A stretch of 64,000 nt of DNA from Podarcis pityusensis (taxonomy: Eukaryota): the NCBI GenBank assembly GCA_964106645.2, contig OZ067039.1; one strand, given 5' to 3'. Position numbers and translations under genes: made by a program. The notes beneath the pieces are model-generated. The model did not search any database, was not told where the DNA came from, and was given only the letters and a program-made list of their open reading frames with translations. Positions 14,639-36,398 of the stretch are shown one piece after another; positions within the stretch are counted from its first letter, which is position 1, and each line of letters opens with the position of its first letter.

Positions 14639-15049
<411 letters not shown>

Positions 15050-25837: not shown

Positions 25838-25928
25838 TCATACACTCAGAGGGAGCATGCCTGGTGCTGATGATGGTCTGGACCCTCCTAGACCTGGTGG
25901 TGGGCCTTGGTCAAAGCCATTGACTGCC
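25838..25928 (-). CDS. NDEL1: NDEL1 last coding exon (PLSV C-terminus, stop TGA)
   Basis: cacag|G GCA GTC AAT ... AGT GTA TGA; [29 protein letters not shown]. Confidence 0.95.
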
Positions 25929-27321
25929 CTGTGGAACAGTAAGAGAAAAGGGTTAACAAGAAGTACCGACAGATAAAAACTGCACTTGTTGCGCCACGTC
26001 ACAAACAGATGCAAAGCTGAACTGTTTGTCTTGCAAGGGCTAGCCAAGTGTGTAAACTGAATTGTGAAAATCCAAAGGACTGTTAATCCTGCAAACTAAA
26101 GGCCAATAGTTCAGTTCCCAAAATGCATGCAGCAAGGGCAAGTCCCTTGATAAACACTTCTGTCTCCTTTTAGAATAGTCTCCTTCCATTTGTTTTCAAT
26201 TTTGGTATGTTTGTTTATATTTTACAATTGTATAATTTGGGGGGCTAACTGCAAAAAGGCAAAGTACACATGTATTTTCTATATATTCAATAGAAACATC
26301 TGCCTTTGGGGCTGTCATCAGGGGTAACAGGGCTTTTTGCTTATCCAGAAATACACCAAATGCTTTGTAAGCATATCTGGCTATACGAAATGGGTATTTT
26401 AGTGTGGCAGCACCTATACTTTGGAACTCCCTGCCTACTGACACCAGACAGACACCTTTAGTGTATCCTGTTCTACACCCACCTGCTTAAAACATTTTTG
26501 TTTAGACAAGCCTGTTCAGTCACAGATGTTGACATTTTTTAACCTTATAAACTGATAATTTTAATGTTTCTTGTAAACTACTAATGTTTCACTACCATCA
26601 AGATGTGCATAAATACCTTTGTATGGTATGTTGCCTTAGCATTACCACACAACCAAACACAGAAATTATCATCCAAGTTTTCCAGTCTATCAGAAAGCTA
26701 TGAGAAGTATCAAAACACACAATATGCATTGACCAAACATCACACCTCCATGTAGAGGTGCTCCCTGCTGCCACACAAATACCAAACCAACCTCTGTTTC
26801 TACCTCTTGCTCTTAGACCTAATCTCCATTTGAAAAACTAGAGGAGGAGACTCATAATTTACCACAAGCCCCCAGAGCTAGGCTGCATGCAAATGTGGGA
26901 CACTCTCCTGCTGCTGCAACCCAGAAGAAAAGCAAAAATGAATTACATAAAGAAGGATTAGGTGGCTCACAGAGCTAGTTAAATCTTTGCTGTGGGCTGT
27001 GTTACAATAGCTAAGAAATAGGTCTCAAATTCAATTATTCAAAAGTTGCAGAGTGACAGAAGTGTTTCAGAGTTAGTTTTGCCAATGAATTGGAATTCCC
27101 ATTGGTTCAATCTATCTAATTGTGTCCTACACCCACAGCAAGCTCTTCATTCAAGTGGAGGTTTCAGTGAATGGAAGTCCCCTTTTCTCCTGCCAACCCC
27201 CCCCCCCCACTTCAAGGGCTCCCCAACTCTCTGGAATGTGTGTGCACACAGTGGACTGCAGAGGGAAGGGGGAATTCATATAAGCCTCTGATGGATCAAG
27301 AAACCATTTATTAGCAGAATA

Positions 27322-28328
27322 CAGTGGTGCCCCGCAAGACGAATGCCTCGCAAGACGGAAAACTCGCTAGACGAAAGGGTTTCCCGTTTTTTGAGCTGCT
27401 TCGCAAGACGAATTTCCCTATGGGCTTGCTTCGCAAGACGAAAAACGAAAACGTCTTGCAAGTTTGTTTCCTTTTTCTTAACACCGTTAATACAGTTGCG
27501 ACTTGACTTCGAGGAGCAACTCATAGAACGCGGTGTGGTAGCCTTTTTTGAGGTTTTTGAAGACTTTGGTGATTTTTGAAGCTTTTCCAAAACTTCTTTT
27601 AAACTTTTAAAACTTTTCTTGGGGGTTTTGGATTTTGGGTTGGGGTGTTTGGAATTCAAGGACTTGGTGTTGGGGAGGGGTTTGCAAGAATCTGGAAGCT
27701 TGTGTGGTTTTTTCCTGCATTTTTATGATTTTCTGTGACCATTGGGCCACTCTGCTGTTTTTTTAAAAAAAATTCTGGATTTGAATTTCTGTGTGGTGGG
27801 TGGCTGGGGGAACAGTTGGGGAGGGGTTTGCAAGAATCTGGAAGCTTGTGTGGTTTTTTCCTGCATTTTTATGATTTTCTGTGACCATTGGGCCACTCTG
27901 CTGTTTTTTTAAAAAAATTCTGGATTTGAATTTCTGTGTGGTGGGTGGCTGGGGGAACAGTTGAAGAGGGGGTTCTTCAGCAAGAAGCAAAGAGTGGAAG
28001 AGGAACCTTCTTCGAGTTGTCCCCCAGAGTCTTAGAAAATGTACTGTACACTTTGTTGATTTTTAAATGTTTTTCTGTCATGTTTAGAAACTTAATTTAT
28101 TGTTCCTTCAATTTTTGAAATGCTCTTTACAGTATGTGTGACTTTAAAGAGCACTTAATAAACTCTTGTTGTACCAAATTTGGCTTTGTTTGGACTTTTT
28201 TTGACCATAGGAACGCATTAATTGGATTTCAATGCATTCCTATGGGATTTCGTGCTTCGCAAGACGAAAAATTCGCTAGACGAAAAAACTCGCAGAACGA
28301 ATTAATTTCGTCTTGCGAGGCACCACTG
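27322..28328. mobile_element. Non-autonomous Tigger/pogo-like DNA transposon (~1 kb)
   Basis: TA|CAGTGGTGCCCCGCAAGACGAA ... TTCGTCTTGCGAGGCACCACTG|TA; subterminal CGC(A/T)AGACGAA repeats. Confidence 0.85.
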
Positions 28329-29984
28329 TATAATTGGATGCAACCCCCTAGCTACTTTTAGTGTGGTAGAGACAGAGAAGATGTTTATGATGCTAATGAA
28401 CAGAAAGTGTCCTGGGAGAATGGACAGATCCATGGCATTGGACATTGAGACAGAATGATAGAACATGTTGAATGACCTAGCCATTATATGCTCCATCCAG
28501 GTCAAGTGATTTTGCAAAAATTGCCTGTGTTTTCAAAATTTGCAATCCAATCACCAAGAATTGGAGTGATGGCAGATTCTGTACTAGAAGGTGGATTCAG
28601 AAAGTTCCAGCAAGGTCATGGTTATGCATAGTTCTATGCTACCAAACCTACAGGCAGGGGACAACACTTCTGGAATACAAACATTCACTGATGAGGAGTC
28701 CAACTCCTAAACAGACCTGAACTTGTTGACTAGTATTCCCAGATACACTAATGTGGTGTTACCCACAAAATATGTACACATCCCTTTGAATATACTGATG
28801 TTTATTTCCAATTTCAGGTTTTTAAATGTACTGGGCTTGGGCACAAATTAAGCACACAGTGATGATGCTGAAGTGAAACCCAACATATATGTCCAAACTT
28901 TCTCCCACTGCATAGCTTGTCCCATATTGGACAGAGACAATTCCTACACAGATTGCAGCTGGAGGCTGCATCACAGCTATGGAAGTTCACTTAGCACTGA
29001 AAAGAGATTGTCTTGGTCAATTGTACAATACACTGATTAGCAGGTATCTAGTGGACTGCTAGGGCTTCCCAGGGCAAGCTAAATGATGGTGGTGTGAGCC
29101 CTACAGAGAAGAAAAAGTATTTCTAGGTCACAGATATTCTGAAGATGGCTTAAGGCAATTATAGGCTAACCTGTTCCTACAAAAACCACGCAAAGTGCTG
29201 GGGCTAGTCACACAAGGAATGTCATGGTAACAGCTGAGAACTGAGGTACAAGACTGTTCAGATCCAGGCCATTCACTGAACTGCAGTTCTGATGCAATAA
29301 AGCCCTAGCGAACTGTCGGTCAGCCATTTCTAGCCTACTTATCTCCTTAGGACTGGCTGGGGCAGGAGGCCCATTAAAGCCTCCCTCTGCCTTCCTGATT
29401 CAACAGCAGATTGAGCTGGAGAAATGCCGCATCAATATGAGCAGGCAAAGCTTCTTGCCTGTGGCATACTTCTCACTCAAACAGCAGAAGTGACTACATT
29501 CAGCAGTGACTTCCTCTCCCCTTCTTAAGCAGAAATCTATTGACAAAGAATGAATAGGGAGGTAGGGGAATGCCCTTCTCCCTTCAAGGCCTTTCCCCTC
29601 CATTTTTCAATGAAAAAGAAAGGACGCTGTGGAAGAAAATTTGAAACTTATGAACTATTTTCACTTTTGGAATTATGGACAGAAGGGTCAAACCTCAGCA
29701 CTGGGCAAGCATCTGCTTTGCCTGATGAAGGTCCCAGGCTTAATCTCCAGGTAGAGCTGGGAGAGGCTCCCTGCCTGAAACCCTAGAGAGCCAATATATC
29801 AGTGTAGACAATAATGAGCTACAGGGACCAATGATTAGGCAGCTTTCTGTATTTGAGCAAAGGGACTTCAATTCCCTCTCCTCATCTGCAACAGACTTCC
29901 ACACAGTCAGAATTTTCTCTGAAGGGTCTCTAAACCTTCTGGAGCAGATTTTGGAGGTCTGTTGGTGGCAGGGGCAGAATGGAA

Positions 29985-30119
29985 GAACAGGCAGGTGAAA
30001 TCTTGTTAGGGGAGTGGAATTCCATAGCATTGGAGCCAACCTAATGTGAATGAACAGGCAGGTGAAATCTTGTTAGGCGAGTGGAATTCCTCCAGCACTG
30101 GAGCCAACTTAATGTGAAT
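29985..30119. repeat. Tandem duplication, 2 x ~67 bp
   Basis: gaacaggcaggtgaaatcttgttagg...ggagccaac.taatgtgaat repeated at 29985 and 30052. Confidence 0.9.
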
Positions 30120-30632
30120 GACACTTTTTAATACAGGGCTTTAAAATATTGTTTCATCTTTATCTTACTTCCTTAATTTCTGATGTAAAGTGTTAGGTAC
30201 TTTTTGAAGACATGCACAATTCTTAATGCCTATTACAAATTCCTCCACTTGAAATTTGAGCATGAAATAAAATGATGCAAATTAAGTACATACTGAATTA
30301 AGAAACAAGCTAACATGCAAATATTGTTTCAAGCAGCAAACCTTCAGTTCACAAATTATGGAGAAGGAAACAGAAAATTGGAATCTACTGATCTTTCAGA
30401 AATGATCATGATTAGAAACAAATTTCATTGTGGGAATTTTCAAGGTTGTGCTTTATTGTTCAATTAGGGTTTCATGTGGCTTATTTATGGTATTTTTACC
30501 CTTGCCTTCCACACTTGTTGTGTGCTAATGACTAAAGAGCTCAATCCTGTTACACAGACGGCAACCATTTTAGGCATGTCCAACTGACACATGATTGCAG
30601 ACGCACAGGTCCTTTTGGACCCGGATGAAGGC

Positions 30633-30697
30633 TTATACGCACTCCACTGACGCTTGTGGGGGCTGGGAACAGAACCCCCGCATGAAAATGTCACCAC
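30633..30697 (-). CDS. NDEL1: Candidate NDEL1 alternative terminal exon, coding part
   Basis: ttaag|GT GGT GAC ... GTA TAA = (G)GDIFMRGFCSQPPQASVECV*. Phase fits the 25-nt exon, the segment is locally CpG-rich, and AATAAA follows at 30452-30457. Confidence 0.45.
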
Positions 30698-31443
30698 CTT
30701 AATATAAAGCAGATATATATGAATCTTGCTTGTGATATGTGGTATCAATCCACTATCCCCTCATGTGTCTCCAGATTATTATTATTTTATTAATTTGGGG
30801 TTTTTCCCCCATTTCTGGATAAATGCTATGGACAGTGGACTGTTTCAAGGCCTAATTGTTAAAAACTTTCATTTTGCTTATCACGATACTGATTGTTCCT
30901 GCTTTATGTGATCATTCATATTTTTACAAAAAACAGTTATCTTTATGTAATGTAAGGTTCAGCAGGTAGTAACTCTATTTCTGGGCCTATTTGTAATTGA
31001 TGCTCAAATACAACTAAGCCATTTGTTTTTAAAATTTCATTAAATTGTACTGTTTGCTAAAGTACTAACTTTACACAATACATTTTATATTCAAGTTTGA
31101 AATTGATGAATAAGTACTTATATATATATTATTTTGTCTCAAAATTTCTAGGGATTTGTTTTTCCATGGTTTGCAAAGTTCCAGAAGTTTCATTTCTGTA
31201 CACAGCACACACCTCAAATCTGGCACGTATTTGTCGCATTCAAGTGGCATGCATGAAGAGGACAAGAGTTCAATAGAAGTATAGCATCCTGTTACGTAAA
31301 ATCTATAAATCTAGTTACATGGCAATAAAAACCAAAAACCAATTCAGTCACAAGATTAGTATCTCAGCCCCACACATCCCTGATAAGTGACACACACTCG
31401 CATCTCCACGCATCAGGCATCACACCAAAACAGTTGCAATTAC

Positions 31444-31468
31444 CCATGAAATGCGCAGGGAATCTGAC
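31444..31468 (-). CDS. NDEL1: Candidate NDEL1 alternative 25-nt exon related to the mammalian FMGQ-isoform exon
   Basis: Pyrimidine tract + atag|GTCAGATTCCCTGCGCATTTCATGG|gtaatt; translates VRFPAHFMG versus human VIFPTLFMG(Q) as recalled. Confidence 0.6.
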
Positions 31469-34400
31469 CTATCCCAAAAGGAGAGATGGAAACAATTCAT
31501 ATTGAAAATATCTGTTATGTCAAAAGACTTCCAGGCATCACTGATGAAGGTGAGGTTCTTGAAGTCAATTTAGGAACTAGTATTAAAGCCAAAGTGGGGA
31601 ATTGCTTTCCAAATTCCACCAAGCATAGCACTAAAACAGCAAGATTAGAGTTGCCTAAAATCAATCCAGTTTACCATCTACATGTCTGCCTTGCTTTGGG
31701 AACACTTTGCTATTAGGGGTTCTGCCTGCACAACTGGCATTCATGTATACTGTATATATTTCTAATAATATAGTCAGTGGTCCTTGATGGCCTACCAGAG
31801 ACCATTTTTAGTACTAGCTTGTACAACATCAATACAGCTGTGTTTAGAATTTGATAACACTGTACATTAATGCTAACATAAGATACAAAGACACCAGCAT
31901 GGAATTCTGGCTTGGGCTGGGATCTAAAGTGTGCTCTGCTGATGGTGCTCTCATTCTGCAATAGAAACGTGTGCTACTACAATGCAAGCAATTGTACTCT
32001 TGGCAATGAGATCTAAAGCAGGATGAGATATAAACCCTCCAAGGATTGCATACACACACCTGCCATCATATCACATGCATTCACTCCCCCAGCCAACTTG
32101 GCTTGAAAACAGTATTTTGGGGTTTTTGAAGCCCAACTCCTGGAGGAGGGATGGATTTTCTGGAGATTGCAAATGGGCTGTGACAGACCATCACAACAAT
32201 TAGGCTTGAGAAAAACCTTCTCCTGATGGCAACAGAAGGCTATTTATCAAGTTTAATTGCAGAGCACAGGGTGTTTTGGTGCAAAGGGAGTATTAACACT
32301 TTCCTTCCTAGCTGTGTCAAACTGAAATGCTCTGGGAAAAGCCTTTTTTCATATTTAATTGTAGCAGGGAAGGGAACACCGTAGGCCAGATGGGGAGGTC
32401 TTAGGGATGACATATACCCCACAGGCCTATGGTTCCTCATCCCTAGTCTAACAAGCTCAAAAGACGAGTTTGCATGAAGTCATCTCAGCCACTTATCAGC
32501 CACCACCAATTTTCAGCATTACAAGGACATGAATAACTGGTTTATTCTCTGGTTCAGTCACAATTTCCAACTTCACTTAAGCTCACTTGGCTTCAAGTTT
32601 CAACAAATGACTTAAGTTAACTTTCCATATAAGAAGCCCTTAACAAGTTGTTCCTGCATGTCACTAGGTAGGACAGTACCCACCACACCCCAGTTTAATA
32701 GCCACTCAATTCCAATGCACCATAGAGTGTCAACAGTGTAAACAATTGCTACTAGCAGAACAGCGGCAAAGCCAGCAATAGAGCAATGTGTGAGTTACCT
32801 CAATCAGTCCCACCACCCAACCATAGGCCATTCATAAGGCAGCAGCAGCAGCAGATTGGGTTGGGTCCATAAACATGCGTGGCTGTTTCAGGATCCAGCG
32901 ACAATTGGGGGCAGGGAGAAGACTACAGGGGCTAGAGAAAGAGAGAGAGAGAGAGAGAAAGAAAGAAACAAACAAACAGGGGAGAAGGAGAAAAAAGAGC
33001 ATGCCTAAGCTCACTTTCCATGCCATGATAAGCTATACTCAGCCCTAGCCAGCATAGCAATAAGATGGTAGCCAATTCACAATTACTCAGAAGGGCTTAA
33101 CAATATGCAAATAAATAAATAAATAAATAAATAATCGCAGGTGGACTGAAAGGGAGGGTGGGGGAGAGACAAGGAGAAGCAGCAAAGGAAGACGGACAGT
33201 ATGCAAGGCCACAGAGTGTCAACATCGGGGCCAAAAGCAGAAGGAACTGAGAAAAGAAGTGTTGCCTTTGACTCTTCTCTGCACACTCCTGAAGAACTTG
33301 AATACCTCCCTGCTTGCTGCTCAAGAAAACCCTGTGTGTCTGCTTCATGGGATATAGCTTGTCGTTGTTATTTGTTCCCCAGCACTACCTTGAAGACAGG
33401 ATCACCAGATCTCTGTTAGACATATTCTTCAAGAGACAAGCTGCAAGAATCCCCTAACCACTGCCCAAAAGTAGGACTGCAGCTGCCTAACAGTACTGTT
33501 TACCAATTCTGTTGTTTCAGTTCTGTACTAGTTACTATAAACAACAGGGAGGTCTGCACTGAATAGGATATGGCATAGTGCAAGGTGAGGTCAGGGACTG
33601 GCAAAAAAAAAAAAAAAAAATAAGAGGACCAAATAGAAAGAAATCATTTCTGCAAAAGTGCAGAATGAGACTTGGGAAAACCTGAAGAGAATTTTGGAGA
33701 GAGACTTGTAAGAGGAAAGCCAGGGTGTTCTAAATGAAGGGATGAGCAGAAAGCAAAAAGAGGAGAGGGCAACAAAAACTAAGCCAATATAAGATGAGCT
33801 TAAACTGATAAAAAGCACAAAGGACCTGAAAAGAGACGTGAGACGATGACTGATGCAGCAATAGAGGAATAATACAAAATATACACAAATCATGAATACT
33901 TCCAGCGGGTCAACTGCATGTTGCATTACACAAACCAGCCCAGCATGCAGCCCAGCATGGAGTGACCCTTTCCTACCTTACAATCTGCTTACTGTTCACA
34001 GTATGGCTCAAGATAGCAAGCGTGGGTTTTAAGAGGCTTGCCTCTGGATTCATGACCATGAGAAGCAAATCACACATTGAAGGCACACCCAATTCACATT
34101 GAGACTAAGTGTATCCACAAGCAATTTCCTATCCCACCTTTGTGCAAATGGCAAAGATGCAGCTTGGTCTGTAAGCTATACAGAAAACATCATTAAGCCA
34201 GGCACAAAGGCAGCCAGCAGAGCTTCTACTTTCCCTTTCCCCTCCCAAACTTCTGAAGGACTCAGCTGCTTATGTGGATTTAGTTTTGCACATGAATTAT
34301 GTACCACACTTTGCCCTAATCACACTTAGTCACATCTAGGTTAGACTGCTGTCTTGAGGTCTGTCAGGGACTGCTTTTGAAAAAGGTACCAGAAATGCAG

Positions 34401-34975
34401 CTGTTAGATTGCAACTGGTGCAGGCTGCATGGAACATAACACTTCAGTTTTGCAACAACTTCATTGCCTAACTCCCTGTTTATGTCACCTAAACAATCTC
34501 TGTGCAGGATAATTTAAGGATGACCCTGATCCTCCACAATCCAAAGTATGGGGAAAGGTGGCATAGGGCAGGGCTTTCTTTGCAGTGGCTCCAAATCTCT
34601 GCAAAAAGATTAGGAACATGGTTGACCATACACTATTTAAAACCTCACAAATGCTCAAGGCAGCATAGCTCCCGAAACCTTTGAAACAAACAGCTCTTAA
34701 CTAGAGCTGGACCAATATTTTTGGCACAGCTCTTTTTGCCCATTTGCAGGGGAGGGGCATAAAAGGCTAGAATAATTTTTGCCCAAATTGGGAAAGAGCA
34801 GAAGAAATTTCTGAGAAAGTTCTCTCAGTGGAAAGAGTGGAAAGGGCTCGCTTACCTTACATTTTATAATGAAATTACCAAGAGTGTGTATCATTTCAAA
34901 CATTAACAAGTTTGTCTTCCTGTACTTGATATGACAGAGGAAGAGAAACTCTGTAGTCCTTCACATTCTCTACGG

Positions 34976-35411
34976 CAGTGGTTGAGAAAACTCCAGCCCA
35001 CAGGCTAATTTGTTCTGCTAGGAGTCCTTAATATGGCCTGTAAGCCATTTCTCCTAAGCCATGCCCACCTGCCATCATATATGATGCCATATATGAGGTA
35101 ACGATGCAAGAGAAAGGAATAACCAGGAGCCTTAGAATATACTCCCAACTACTCTTTGGCAAGTGGGGCTTGTATGCAGCACCTGTTAAATTTGGCTGAT
35201 CAGCACCAACTTCAAGCCTCGCTGCAATCTTGCTTGGCGACACAGTTTGACTTTGAGCTGTGTTGCCTAGGAAAAATGGGTCACCTGACATTGTGATATC
35301 AAGTGATTGACAAGTGGGCAGGACTTTGACACTGCAGCTGTCAAAGTGTCCCACTGCGGATGGGGGAGCTAAGGATCTGGCTTACCAGCCAAATTCTATT
35401 TCCCACCACTG
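34976..35411. mobile_element. Old hAT-like MITE
   Basis: CAGTGGTTGAGAAA ... TTTCCCACCACTG imperfect inverted ends; degenerate 8-bp flanks. Confidence 0.5.
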
Positions 35412-36246
35412 CCCTATAGTTTAAAAAATAAAAATTTGGATCAGGACAACTTTGTGCAGGAATGGGTGAGTTAACCCAACCCTTCCCCTTCATGATCTTA
35501 CCTAAATCAAAACATCCACAACGGCATGACAGTTAACACTCAGGAAAAAAAAGGTCCTGTTGACCCTAAACCCTCTGCCTCCTCATTCTAAGAAGTAAAG
35601 TGAGTCCAAGCCAACCACTACCCACAAAATTTTCTTCTGTCCATCTTGAAATCTAATGGAAAACATATTCATTTTCCCAAGGGGACAAATGGTCCAACAA
35701 ATATGAGGGTGGGAGTTCAGCTCACCACCATTACTACAACATTCTGTTAGACATACGAGGTAGCCATGATGGAATACTCCTGAGTTTCACTGATGGCATG
35801 TGAAGGCTAGGTTGTTTCTTACTTAACAAACTTCACTTAACTCTTGGAAAGAAACCAAAGCATGAAGTGTCACAGTAAGCCAAACAAATCTGACCTCATG
35901 ATGCCTTGCTTATTTTGAGTGATGTTCCACTATTTGCTATTAACTCCTTTCCCCAACTGTACAGAACACTCTAAAGGGCCCACTACAATTTCTTGAAGGT
36001 TGCCAAGCCAGCTTCCTAGTGCTACAGCTTAGGTGCCAAACTGGAGAACATGAAAGCTCAGATTCGCATCCTCAGAGGGTCAAGGTATCCTGTTCTCTGG
36101 GCTTAACAAGAGGCCTGTAGATGATGGGCTTCCTTAAGTTGCACCCTATATCCACAGGAAATATGTCCATAGGCCAAAGGTTGGAAGCTTTTGTCTATTA
36201 GCATACAAACTACATCCCTGAAACATCGAGCACAACCAGAACTTAC

Positions 36247-36398
36247 GCTTTGTCATAGAATGTCGTGTGTCCTGAATGACAGAACTTCATGCCATTGCTG
36301 TTTATCATGCTGCTGTTTATGTTCCCTGAAATGTAAGATTTCCGCGATGCCTGGTCCTTCGCAAAGTTTCTACAAGCAGCTAATTTCGATTCCAAGGC
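36247..36398 (-). CDS. NDEL1: NDEL1 exon 8 (152 bp; absent from ORF track)
   Basis: ctcag|GCC TTG ... AAA GC|gtaag; ALESKLAACRNFAKDQASRKSY...HTTFYDK. Confidence 0.95.

Follow-up and report, generated by a model that had tools for sequence, protein, structure and literature searches.

The window analysed here is a stretch of 64,000 nucleotides from Podarcis pityusensis (contig OZ067039.1), and its minus-strand gene is NDEL1 (Table 1). Searching with the 50-aa translation of exon 8 gave NDEL1 proteins, the best of them 98% identical. The tail encoded by the last exon, PLSV, is 29/29 identical to that of Anolis sagrei and 26/29 to that of chicken. A role in tuning partners and phosphorylation is attributed to the tails of NDEL1. 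S332 and S336 lie within the PLSV tail of the 345-aa rodent NDEL1 protein P0314, and the available part of PMC6927744 describes them as DYRK2-GSK3b sites that promote neurite growth. A preliminary description of the locus held that intron 8 is far longer than the other coding introns. This is confirmed for the remaining six (708-2812 nt). The longest NDEL1 intron is the putative 5'-UTR intron of about 11.0 kb, whose upper end was placed by means of a GT donor and a region rich in CpG. A transposon-like element accounts for about 1 kb of intron 8, and Rfam gave no matches within the intron.

Table 1. Features of NDEL1 intron 8 and its flanking exons in the window.
Feature	Position	Strand	Remarks
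NDEL1 exon 8	36247..36398	-	152 nt, phase 2 at its end; GT donor
NDEL1 intron 8	25929..36246	-	10,318 nt, GT-AG
86-nt candidate	35502..35587	-	stop after 6 codons, 64 nt before donor
64-nt candidate	34856..34919	-	strong donor (6/7), open frame; competing AG 5 nt upstream
94-nt candidate	33504..33597	-	acceptor with T-run; donor weak (3/7); frame closes after 1 codon
9-nt candidate	33087..33095	-	AAG acceptor after ATTT repeat, weak donor (3/7)
Acceptor context of 133-nt exon	32932..33002	-	pyrimidine tract and 71-nt AG-free zone
133-nt alternative exon (predicted)	32799..32931	-	32-residue tail with AAAL end from codons 32930-32835; stop at 32834-32832
25-nt alternative exon (predicted)	31444..31468	-	putative squamate form of the 35-nt FMGQ exon; after exon 8 reads SDSLRISW
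ACTAAT	31355..31360	-	83 nt downstream of the 25-nt exon
TGCATG	31248..31253	-	190 nt downstream of the 25-nt exon
Candidate terminal exon	30633..30697	-	AAG acceptor; 20-codon frame reached solely via the 64+25 chain
Transposon-like insertion	27319..28331		25-nt terminal inverted repeats and internal 146-nt duplication
Last exon, coding part (PLSV tail)	25838..25928	-	serines match mammalian S332 and S336

Other species were compared through 322 NDEL1 proteins (299, and 23 added later), of which 303 are named, with no named lacertid among the latter. The clades counted comprise 31 squamate, 16 turtle, 25 palaeognath/galloanserine, 29 Neoaves, 82 mammal, 62 amphibian and 55 fish proteins. Cross-species support comes from automatic gene models with predicted tails, and such tails are noisy: other, mostly one-off ends appear in 47 of the 82 mammalian NDEL1 proteins.

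Seven short AG...GT segments had been listed in intron 8. All of them are found where they were placed, each with an upstream AG and, for the six internal ones, a GTAA donor; their number, on the other hand, is not above chance. The loose rule that admits them yields 21 donor-acceptor segments in intron 8, as compared with means of 16.7 and 20.3 in shuffles of the intron (300 shuffles each). Under the same rule, introns 2-7 (7.3 kb) yield 16 segments and the upstream intron (8.6 kb) yields 22, and the antisense strand of intron 8 only 5. When donors with at least 5/7 consensus matches are demanded, 10 segments are obtained vs. 11.0 in the shuffles, and 194 of 300 shuffles reach 10. AG...GT segments of these kinds occur at chance rates in intron 8. 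A chain leading from the 64-nt segment through the 25-nt segment to a terminal exon at 30697 does translate open as written; however, several hundred chains are just as valid, and the 5'-UTR intron contains such chains as well. Intron 8 has 881 open three-step chains (shuffle median 133.5), a count reached by 3 of 300 shuffles, while at least one open chain is present in 295 of 300. Since 10.3 kb of the 5'-UTR intron also gives 611 open three-step chains, one phasing chain is no evidence. That intron 8 has more open chains than 297 out of 300 shuffles is nevertheless a point against the two-exon explanation given below.

The 133-nt segment, which had been listed but left untranslated, has canonical splice sites and a phase compatible with exon 8. 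Its acceptor, with a pyrimidine fraction of 1.00, shows the strongest context among the 15 acceptors scored. Database tails aligned to intron 8 (tblastn) with 77-97% identity over 30-32 aa, the E values being 3e-18 to 6e-31. The AAAL tail is present in 14 of the 31 squamate, 9 of the 16 turtle and 12 of the 25 palaeognath/galloanserine NDEL1 proteins (35/322 in total, three clades, 72-97% identity), and in none of the 82 mammal, 62 amphibian, 55 fish and 29 Neoaves proteins. All 35 proteins of this annotation-selected set have one open frame and an identical Leu-stop end. The predicted isoforms Anolis carolinensis X1 (XP_003217116.1, P0006), Gallus gallus X1 (XP_046785261.1, P0145) and Chrysemys picta bellii X3 (P0035) carry the same tail at the same exon-8 joint, and the lizard tail reveals no substantial difference from them. 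Identity between lizard and chicken is 23/32 for the AAAL tail, 41/50 for exon 8 and 26/29 for PLSV. A region search with the Anolis tail found it in 7 of 21 candidates, squamate or turtle throughout. An HMM search of 1.84 billion representatives returned five matches, two of them real (P0003 and P0296); the other three were dropped as repetitive sequences. The ESM Atlas search gave no usable match, and a metagenome locus (L001, the one locus from 268 pattern matches) was discarded as a false positive, being the antisense of an unrelated ORF without NDEL1 sequence. Judged by its splice sites and protein matches, the 133-nt segment is most likely a real alternative exon with a tail common to reptiles and birds. 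This best-supported extra tail is shared with turtles and birds and hence not specific to lizards.

By the usual rule, nonsense-mediated decay requires a stop that precedes the last junction by over 50-55 nt. That distance is 33 nt with the 133-nt exon alone and 58 nt with the 25-nt exon added. Spliced to the last exon, the 133-nt exon should escape decay because its stop is only 33 nt before the donor, and co-inclusion of both exons, with the last junction at 58 nt, could trigger it. A similar layout is seen in exon 8T of human NDE1, described in the available part of PMC5339911 as a stop-containing exon whose donor lies 32 bp past the stop. Like the 133-nt exon, exon 8T is joined to a later terminal exon and gives lineage-specific tails; however, it is a different exon of a different gene (the paralog), and the likeness is one of layout only. 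The AAAL tail was also considered as an Ala-rich C-degron of Pirh2, for which the available part of PMC10148881 gives a C-terminal A/S-X-A-A with a required terminal Ala. This assignment was rejected because Leu is terminal in all 10 aligned rows, although Leu itself is not among the substitutions in that part of the source.

The link drawn earlier between the 25-nt segment and FMGQ holds, being backed by 6/9 identity to FMGQ-type tails in the unused frame of the exon (E ~0.02 within the intron) and by position. The sequence match is weak alone, but together with position it suggests homology to the FMGQ exon. The 35-nt cassette of mammalian NDEL1-FMGQ, as presented in the available part of PMC2631193, has the same position and homologous sequence, loses PLSV and ends 14 residues after DK. 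The lizard exon differs in that it has 25 rather than 35 nt, uses another frame, encodes an unrelated peptide and takes its stop from another last-exon frame. It had been read in the frame of the 64-nt chain, whereas squamate models use another frame, straight after exon 8. In this frame the exon shifts the last exon so that the stop comes 5 codons further on, and its SDSLRISW peptide is 7/8 identical to snake and iguanian models and 6/8 to gecko. The SDSL frame occurs directly after exon 8 in 9 of 31 squamate proteins (gecko, iguanians, snakes), and the FMGQ frame in 0 of 31. Seven of the nine SDSL-frame proteins stop 14 residues after the exon-8 DK, and the same stop position is found in 6/6 turtle and 6/8 mammal proteins of the FMGQ type. 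Translated in this way, the Podarcis protein, too, would end 14 residues past DK and lack PLSV. Predicted squamate isoforms of 328/329 aa, such as Eublepharis macularius X4 (XP_054833468.1, P0130), Pituophis X4 (P0128) and Anolis X3 (P0153), have the same 25-nt exon, shifted frame and early stop, and the lizard short tail differs from them by one or two residues.

The 25-nt segment was rejected as an FMGQ-isoform exon proper (35 nt, phase-2 entry, FMGQ peptide): the ancestral acceptor position, 10 nt upstream, is without AG, and the old frame holds TAG. Neither the window nor gecko model P0125 retains the stop that the old FMGQ frame had in the last exon, which fits a frame that has fallen out of use. 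When six squamate models are back-translated, each shows a change in the old frame at positions 2 and 6, and in gecko its position 7 cannot be Phe. By its predicted products, the 25-nt exon works like the FMGQ exon without making the FMGQ isoform. The suggestion that this intron provides more tails than PLSV and FMGQ is upheld by the AAAL and SDSL tails, both matched in proteins of other species. As to whether such tails are already annotated, both are predicted isoforms in RefSeq/Ensembl-type models.

The five other segments (64, 86, 94 and 9 nt, and 30697) look like chance decoys. The 64-nt peptide has no match in the 322 proteins, and a search with the 64-nt exon and its read-through frame gave nine candidates, none at E up to 10 (a weak negative, covering longer proteins as cluster representatives only). 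The 86-nt candidate has no match among database tails, and the 30697 peptide none among the 299 proteins nor among the 23 more. The chain proposed as an isoform is likewise unmatched among the 322 proteins, which include no named lacertid. Neural microexons are typically frame-preserving, with upstream UGC and cross-species conservation. The 9-nt segment was tried as one and rejected: it is frame-preserving and has TGC at -14, yet its donor scores 3/7 and the 3-residue insert is seen in 0/5 squamate PLSV proteins.

The best explanation as a whole, with a probability of about 0.78, appears to be that intron 8 holds two exons and gives three main ends, the exons serving as PLSV-removing switches. 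Its anatomical part, in which two alternative exons are real and about five segments are decoys, is likely by sequence comparison. The three main NDEL1 ends are most likely PLSV (both exons skipped), AAAL (133-nt exon included) and a short SQWL end (25-nt exon included), to judge from the splice signals, the phase, the translations and the tails matched in other species' public proteins. The reptile-bird lineage probably gained or retained the 133-nt exon, which seems to be missing from the sampled Neoaves. A squamate ancestor may have shifted the acceptor of the 35-nt FMGQ exon by 10 nt, which would have changed the frame and kept the truncation and protein length. The main role of both exons could then be that of a switch, by which the coiled-coil protein loses the PLSV tail and its DYRK2/GSK3b serines but otherwise stays intact. 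For this step the odds are about even; conservation of the FMGQ peptide from rays to mammals argues that its sequence matters, and against the step. A more far-reaching version is rather doubtful. It assumes that the squamate acceptor shift swapped the whole of a peptide otherwise kept from rays to mammals and preserved truncation, exact length and downstream motifs, so that the FMGQ switch would act by PLSV deletion rather than through its own sequence; the AAAL tail, a third and translated end in reptiles and early-branching birds, with an mRNA stable alone and decaying with both exons, would make the pair a two-exon logic gate.

It is unlikely, if conceivable, that the 133-nt exon is real but mainly a regulatory RNA that tunes PLSV output via decay or an early 3' end, the AAAL peptide being incidental. 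ORF P0296 resembles the window for several residues past the AAAL stop, which points to nucleotide-level constraint, and poly(A)-type hexamers follow the exon at 32699, 32546, 32359 and 32257. The 58-nt distance reached with the 25-nt exon would also fit, as would a tail less conserved than PLSV towards chicken and without confident structure: in a single-sequence AlphaFold model of P0140, residues 283-347 are below pLDDT 50 and the tail has no secondary structure. However, 35/35 tail proteins of the annotation-selected set keep the open frame and Leu-stop end, and if the exon is joined directly to the last one, the distance is 33 nt, below the usual 50-nt rule.

The remaining two accounts concern which exons are used at all. 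One of them, a switchboard specific to lacertids, is very unlikely: here the 64-nt exon would bring the 25-nt exon back into its old FMGQ frame and lead on to the terminal exon 30697. The chain is open, no other candidate matches the donor of the 64-nt exon, which is also the sole stop-free one with a length restoring the old frame, that frame still matches FMGQ-type tails at 6/9, and a young exon is possible in a sample without lacertid proteins. Against this, the 64-nt and 30697 peptides are unmatched, the search of longer proteins (weak; cluster representatives) is also empty, the FMGQ frame is found in none of the 31 squamate proteins, the old frame has been altered in the six squamate models, with gecko position 7 not Phe, and hundreds of chains are equally valid, including those of the 5'-UTR intron. 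Least probable of all is that every intronic exon, the two supported ones included, reflects low-level splicing noise taken up by annotation pipelines. Mammalian models do hold many one-off tails, but these do not recur across clades, whereas AAAL recurs in squamates, turtles and birds, and the 25-nt exon seems to descend from an exon regulated in mammals.

If the two-exon reading with three ends is correct, the squamate frameshift should provide a ready-made control of identical length for separating the FMGQ peptide from PLSV loss. According to reviews (available part of PMC10835012), the exon-containing form alone partly rescues Ndel1 loss in mouse, an effect that may depend on the FMGQ peptide or just on PLSV loss. 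The AAAL tail would be a conserved, apparently unstudied reptile-bird isoform that could be tested in chicken. No paper on reptile or bird NDEL1 tails was found among the top-ranked matches of the literature search. The value of these findings is limited by the fact that both isoforms are already in public gene models, that the tails belong to a disordered region past the sites known for dynein and LIS1, and that lineage-specific tails are already known for NDE1.

As regards regulation, the 35-nt NDEL1 exon gains +46 PSI in terminal erythropoiesis (available part of PMC3973340), and MBNL1 controls it in mammals according to the accessible portions of reviews (PMC10835012, PMC13044900, PMC10400058). 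In the lizard intron, MBNL-type YGCY clusters reach at most 7 per 200 nt vs. a mean of 2.5 and are not specific to real exons; 6 YGCY in 300 nt near the 25-nt exon are not unusual. The ACTAAT and TGCATG below this exon are taken to be QKI-type and RBFOX-type motifs, respectively; of 1002 sliding windows across the intron, 29 contain both motifs within 300 nt. The available part of PMC13751310 counts NDEL1 among the co-targets of QKI and RBFOX.

A search with the translation of exon 8 finds NDEL1 proteins sharing up to 98% identity, the closest hits being from squamates; this exon ends in phase 2. The seven coding introns of the gene, all GT-AG, measure 2812, 881, 708, 1569, 725, 1003 and 10,318 nt, so the contrast in size drawn in the preliminary description between the last one, intron 8, and the others (708–2812 nt) holds as far as coding introns are concerned. 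For the putative 5′-UTR intron the length is ~11.0 kb (upper end inferred). An element with terminal inverted repeats takes up about 1 kb of intron 8 and looks like a non-autonomous Tc1/mariner-type transposon, the family being a guess; a tandem pair lies elsewhere in the intron.

Features located in the window
Feature	Positions	Strand	Details
Intron 8	25929-36246	minus	last NDEL1 coding intron
Translated query	36249-36398	minus
Exon 8 read-through stop	36244-36248	minus
Exon A	32799-32931	minus	133 nt, AAAL tail
Second AG in exon A	32922	minus	9 nt into the exon
Exon B	31444-31468	minus	25 nt
30697 candidate	30697 onward	minus
Tandem pair	29980-30121		~68-nt unit, copies 93% alike
Inverted-repeat element	27319-28331		25-nt terminal inverted repeats flanked by TA; internal 146-nt duplication
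Myosin gene, 3′ part	1-22200	plus	tail to tail with NDEL1
Myosin gene exon	14819-15031	plus	best match Myosin-10, E 3.9e-31

The seven AG...GT segments first proposed in intron 8 all exist, each with an upstream AG and the six internal ones with a GTAA donor. Their number, however, is ordinary: a permissive rule finds 21 in intron 8, where shuffled sequences average 16.7 and 20.3; it also finds 16 across 7.3 kb of introns 2-7, 22 across 8.6 kb of the upstream intron and 5 on the antisense strand. Stronger donors leave 10 vs. 11.0 in shuffles. The proposed chain of phases from the 64-nt segment through the 25-nt one to the 30697 exon is open, but such chaining turned out to be uninformative. 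Intron 8 holds 881 open three-step chains, a number reached by only 3 of 300 shuffles; at least one such chain is present in 295 of the 300, and the 5′-UTR intron has 611. Since shuffles and the 5′-UTR intron also give open chains, phase chaining cannot select real exons; cross-species comparison can.

For this comparison, 322 proteins were fetched. The 303 with a species name were sorted into groups by hand, and the 19 without one do not enter the clade counts. The sample is biased, consisting of cluster representatives with no more than 15 members taken from any cluster (one contains 667), and no lacertid is among the 303 named proteins. One-off tails are common in automatic models (47 of 82 mammalian proteins).

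The 133-nt segment, exon A, had been listed but left untranslated; it encodes a tail conserved in squamates, turtles and birds. Entered in phase 2, it gives 32 residues ending AAAL, a stop, 33 nt and then a GAG/GTAACT donor. Its acceptor is the best of 15 scored, its tract being all pyrimidine and its AG-free zone reaching 71 nt; use of the second AG, an in-frame loss of the first three codons, is seen in no database protein. The AAAL tail follows exon 8 in 14/31 squamate, 9/16 turtle and 12/25 palaeognath or galloanserine proteins, and in none of the 29 Neoaves, 3 crocodilian, 82 mammal, 62 amphibian and 55 fish proteins sampled, where absence from Neoaves, crocodilians and mammals means absence from a partial sample. 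The tail is slightly less conserved than exon 8, with identity to the window of 28/32 vs. 46/50 in Anolis, 24/32 vs. 40/50 in turtle and 23/32 vs. 41/50 in chicken. Across an alignment of 10 sequences, the final Leu does not vary, nor do two Cys and two Pro-rich stretches. An unnamed ORF, P0296, has an AAAL-type tail in which His replaces Arg at two positions and Trp the stop, followed by a WVVGL stretch, and may be an unspliced, perhaps decaying copy. The window also encodes WVVGL downstream of the exon A stop, so the constraint on exon A would lie partly on RNA. Poly(A)-type hexamers lie downstream as well, and exon A could therefore be a terminal exon. By the 50-nt rule for stop-to-last-junction distance in mRNA decay, exon A joined to the last exon (33 nt) would escape decay, and exon A plus exon B (58 nt) would be borderline. 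The 33 nt is similar to the 32-bp spacing reported for human NDE1 exon 8T (PMC5339911).

The 25-nt segment, exon B, matches FMGQ-type tails at 6/9 positions in the frame first assigned to it and so is, judged by sequence, a descendant of the 35-nt FMGQ exon, which is found in rays, ray-finned fish, frogs, turtles, birds and mammals. In the window there is no AG where one would be expected, 10 nt upstream, and a TAG in the old frame directly precedes the segment. The kinship with FMGQ stands, but squamate models use another frame, with exon B spliced straight to exon 8 and read SDSL(H/Q/R)(I/M)SW, in 9/31 proteins (gecko, Anolis, Sceloporus and three snakes); the FMGQ frame appears in 0/31. Seven of the nine add five last-exon codons in shifted frame and stop 14 residues past the exon 8 DK, as do FMGQ-type proteins of turtles (6/6) and mammals (6/8); the other two continue beyond the exon B donor. 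The last-exon stop terminating FMGQ is gone in the window and in a gecko protein (P0125). At 83 and 190 nt below exon B lie motifs which we take to be QKI-type and RBFOX-type, respectively; neither occurs within 300 nt of the other five internal candidates, and both together occur in 29/1002 sliding windows. Frog models have a recurring tail of their own after the FMGQ-type exon, beginning VDCYR or similar (P0070, P0192, P0193, P0194, P0202, P0218, P0281, P0289, P0292), a lineage-specific extension with no match in intron 8. The one-off tail after exon 8 in P0134 (Rhineura floridana isoform X4) likewise has none there.

The 64-nt segment combines a strong donor with an open frame, and it is the only candidate that would restore the old reading frame of exon B. 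Neither its peptide nor that encoded by the 30697 candidate has a match among 299 proteins (short BLAST) or 23 later ones (by eye), nor in a database search, which is weak evidence. A stop comes no later than 6 codons into the 86-nt and 94-nt segments, 64 and 87 nt ahead of their donors, respectively. The donor of the 9-nt segment is weak, and the insert it would give is in 0/5 squamate PLSV proteins. A lacertid-only exon among these is possible.

The paper that named the PLSV and FMGQ ends of NDEL1 describes these two (PMC2631193). The suggestion of a richer set of tails is supported for exons A and B, conserved and already annotated in public predicted isoforms, and finds no support in the other five segments among the proteins sampled. 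No paper on their tails was found in the open-licence literature among the matches listed. From these comparisons, both exons appear to be real, conserved and apparently unstudied, and they are useful as a natural control.

The coiled coil and second helix of NDEL1 end near residue 287, solved structures extend only to ~residue 284, and a single-sequence model of an AAAL isoform gives the tail region no confident structure. The reported heavy-chain site, residues 256-291 (PMC9041303), precedes all three tails. For the mammalian protein, priming of S336 by DYRK2 is reported to be followed by modification of S332 by GSK3b, which promotes actin dynamics and neurite growth (PMC6927744). Both serines are within the PLSV tail, which is conserved in the window. 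Inclusion of either exon would therefore keep the dynein/LIS1-binding body intact and lose this phospho-tail. Such a tail-deletion model must, however, account for how deeply the FMGQ peptide is conserved, which suggests that this sequence itself has a role. The human 35-nt exon is reported to gain 46 PSI points in late erythroblasts (PMC3973340), a rise that reviews ascribe to MBNL1 (PMC10835012, PMC13044900, PMC10400058), and NDEL1 is listed, by gene, among 20 QKI-RBFOX co-targets (PMC13751310).

Read-through of the exon 8 donor reaches a stop immediately, and several models (P0132, P0249, P0184, P0266) are matching truncated proteins that end DKA or DKG. A fourth NDEL1 end may thus come from retention of the intron or from early 3′ ends. 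The neighbouring gene encodes a non-muscle myosin heavy chain. That MYH10 neighbours NDEL1, and MYH11 in parallel NDE1, is known.
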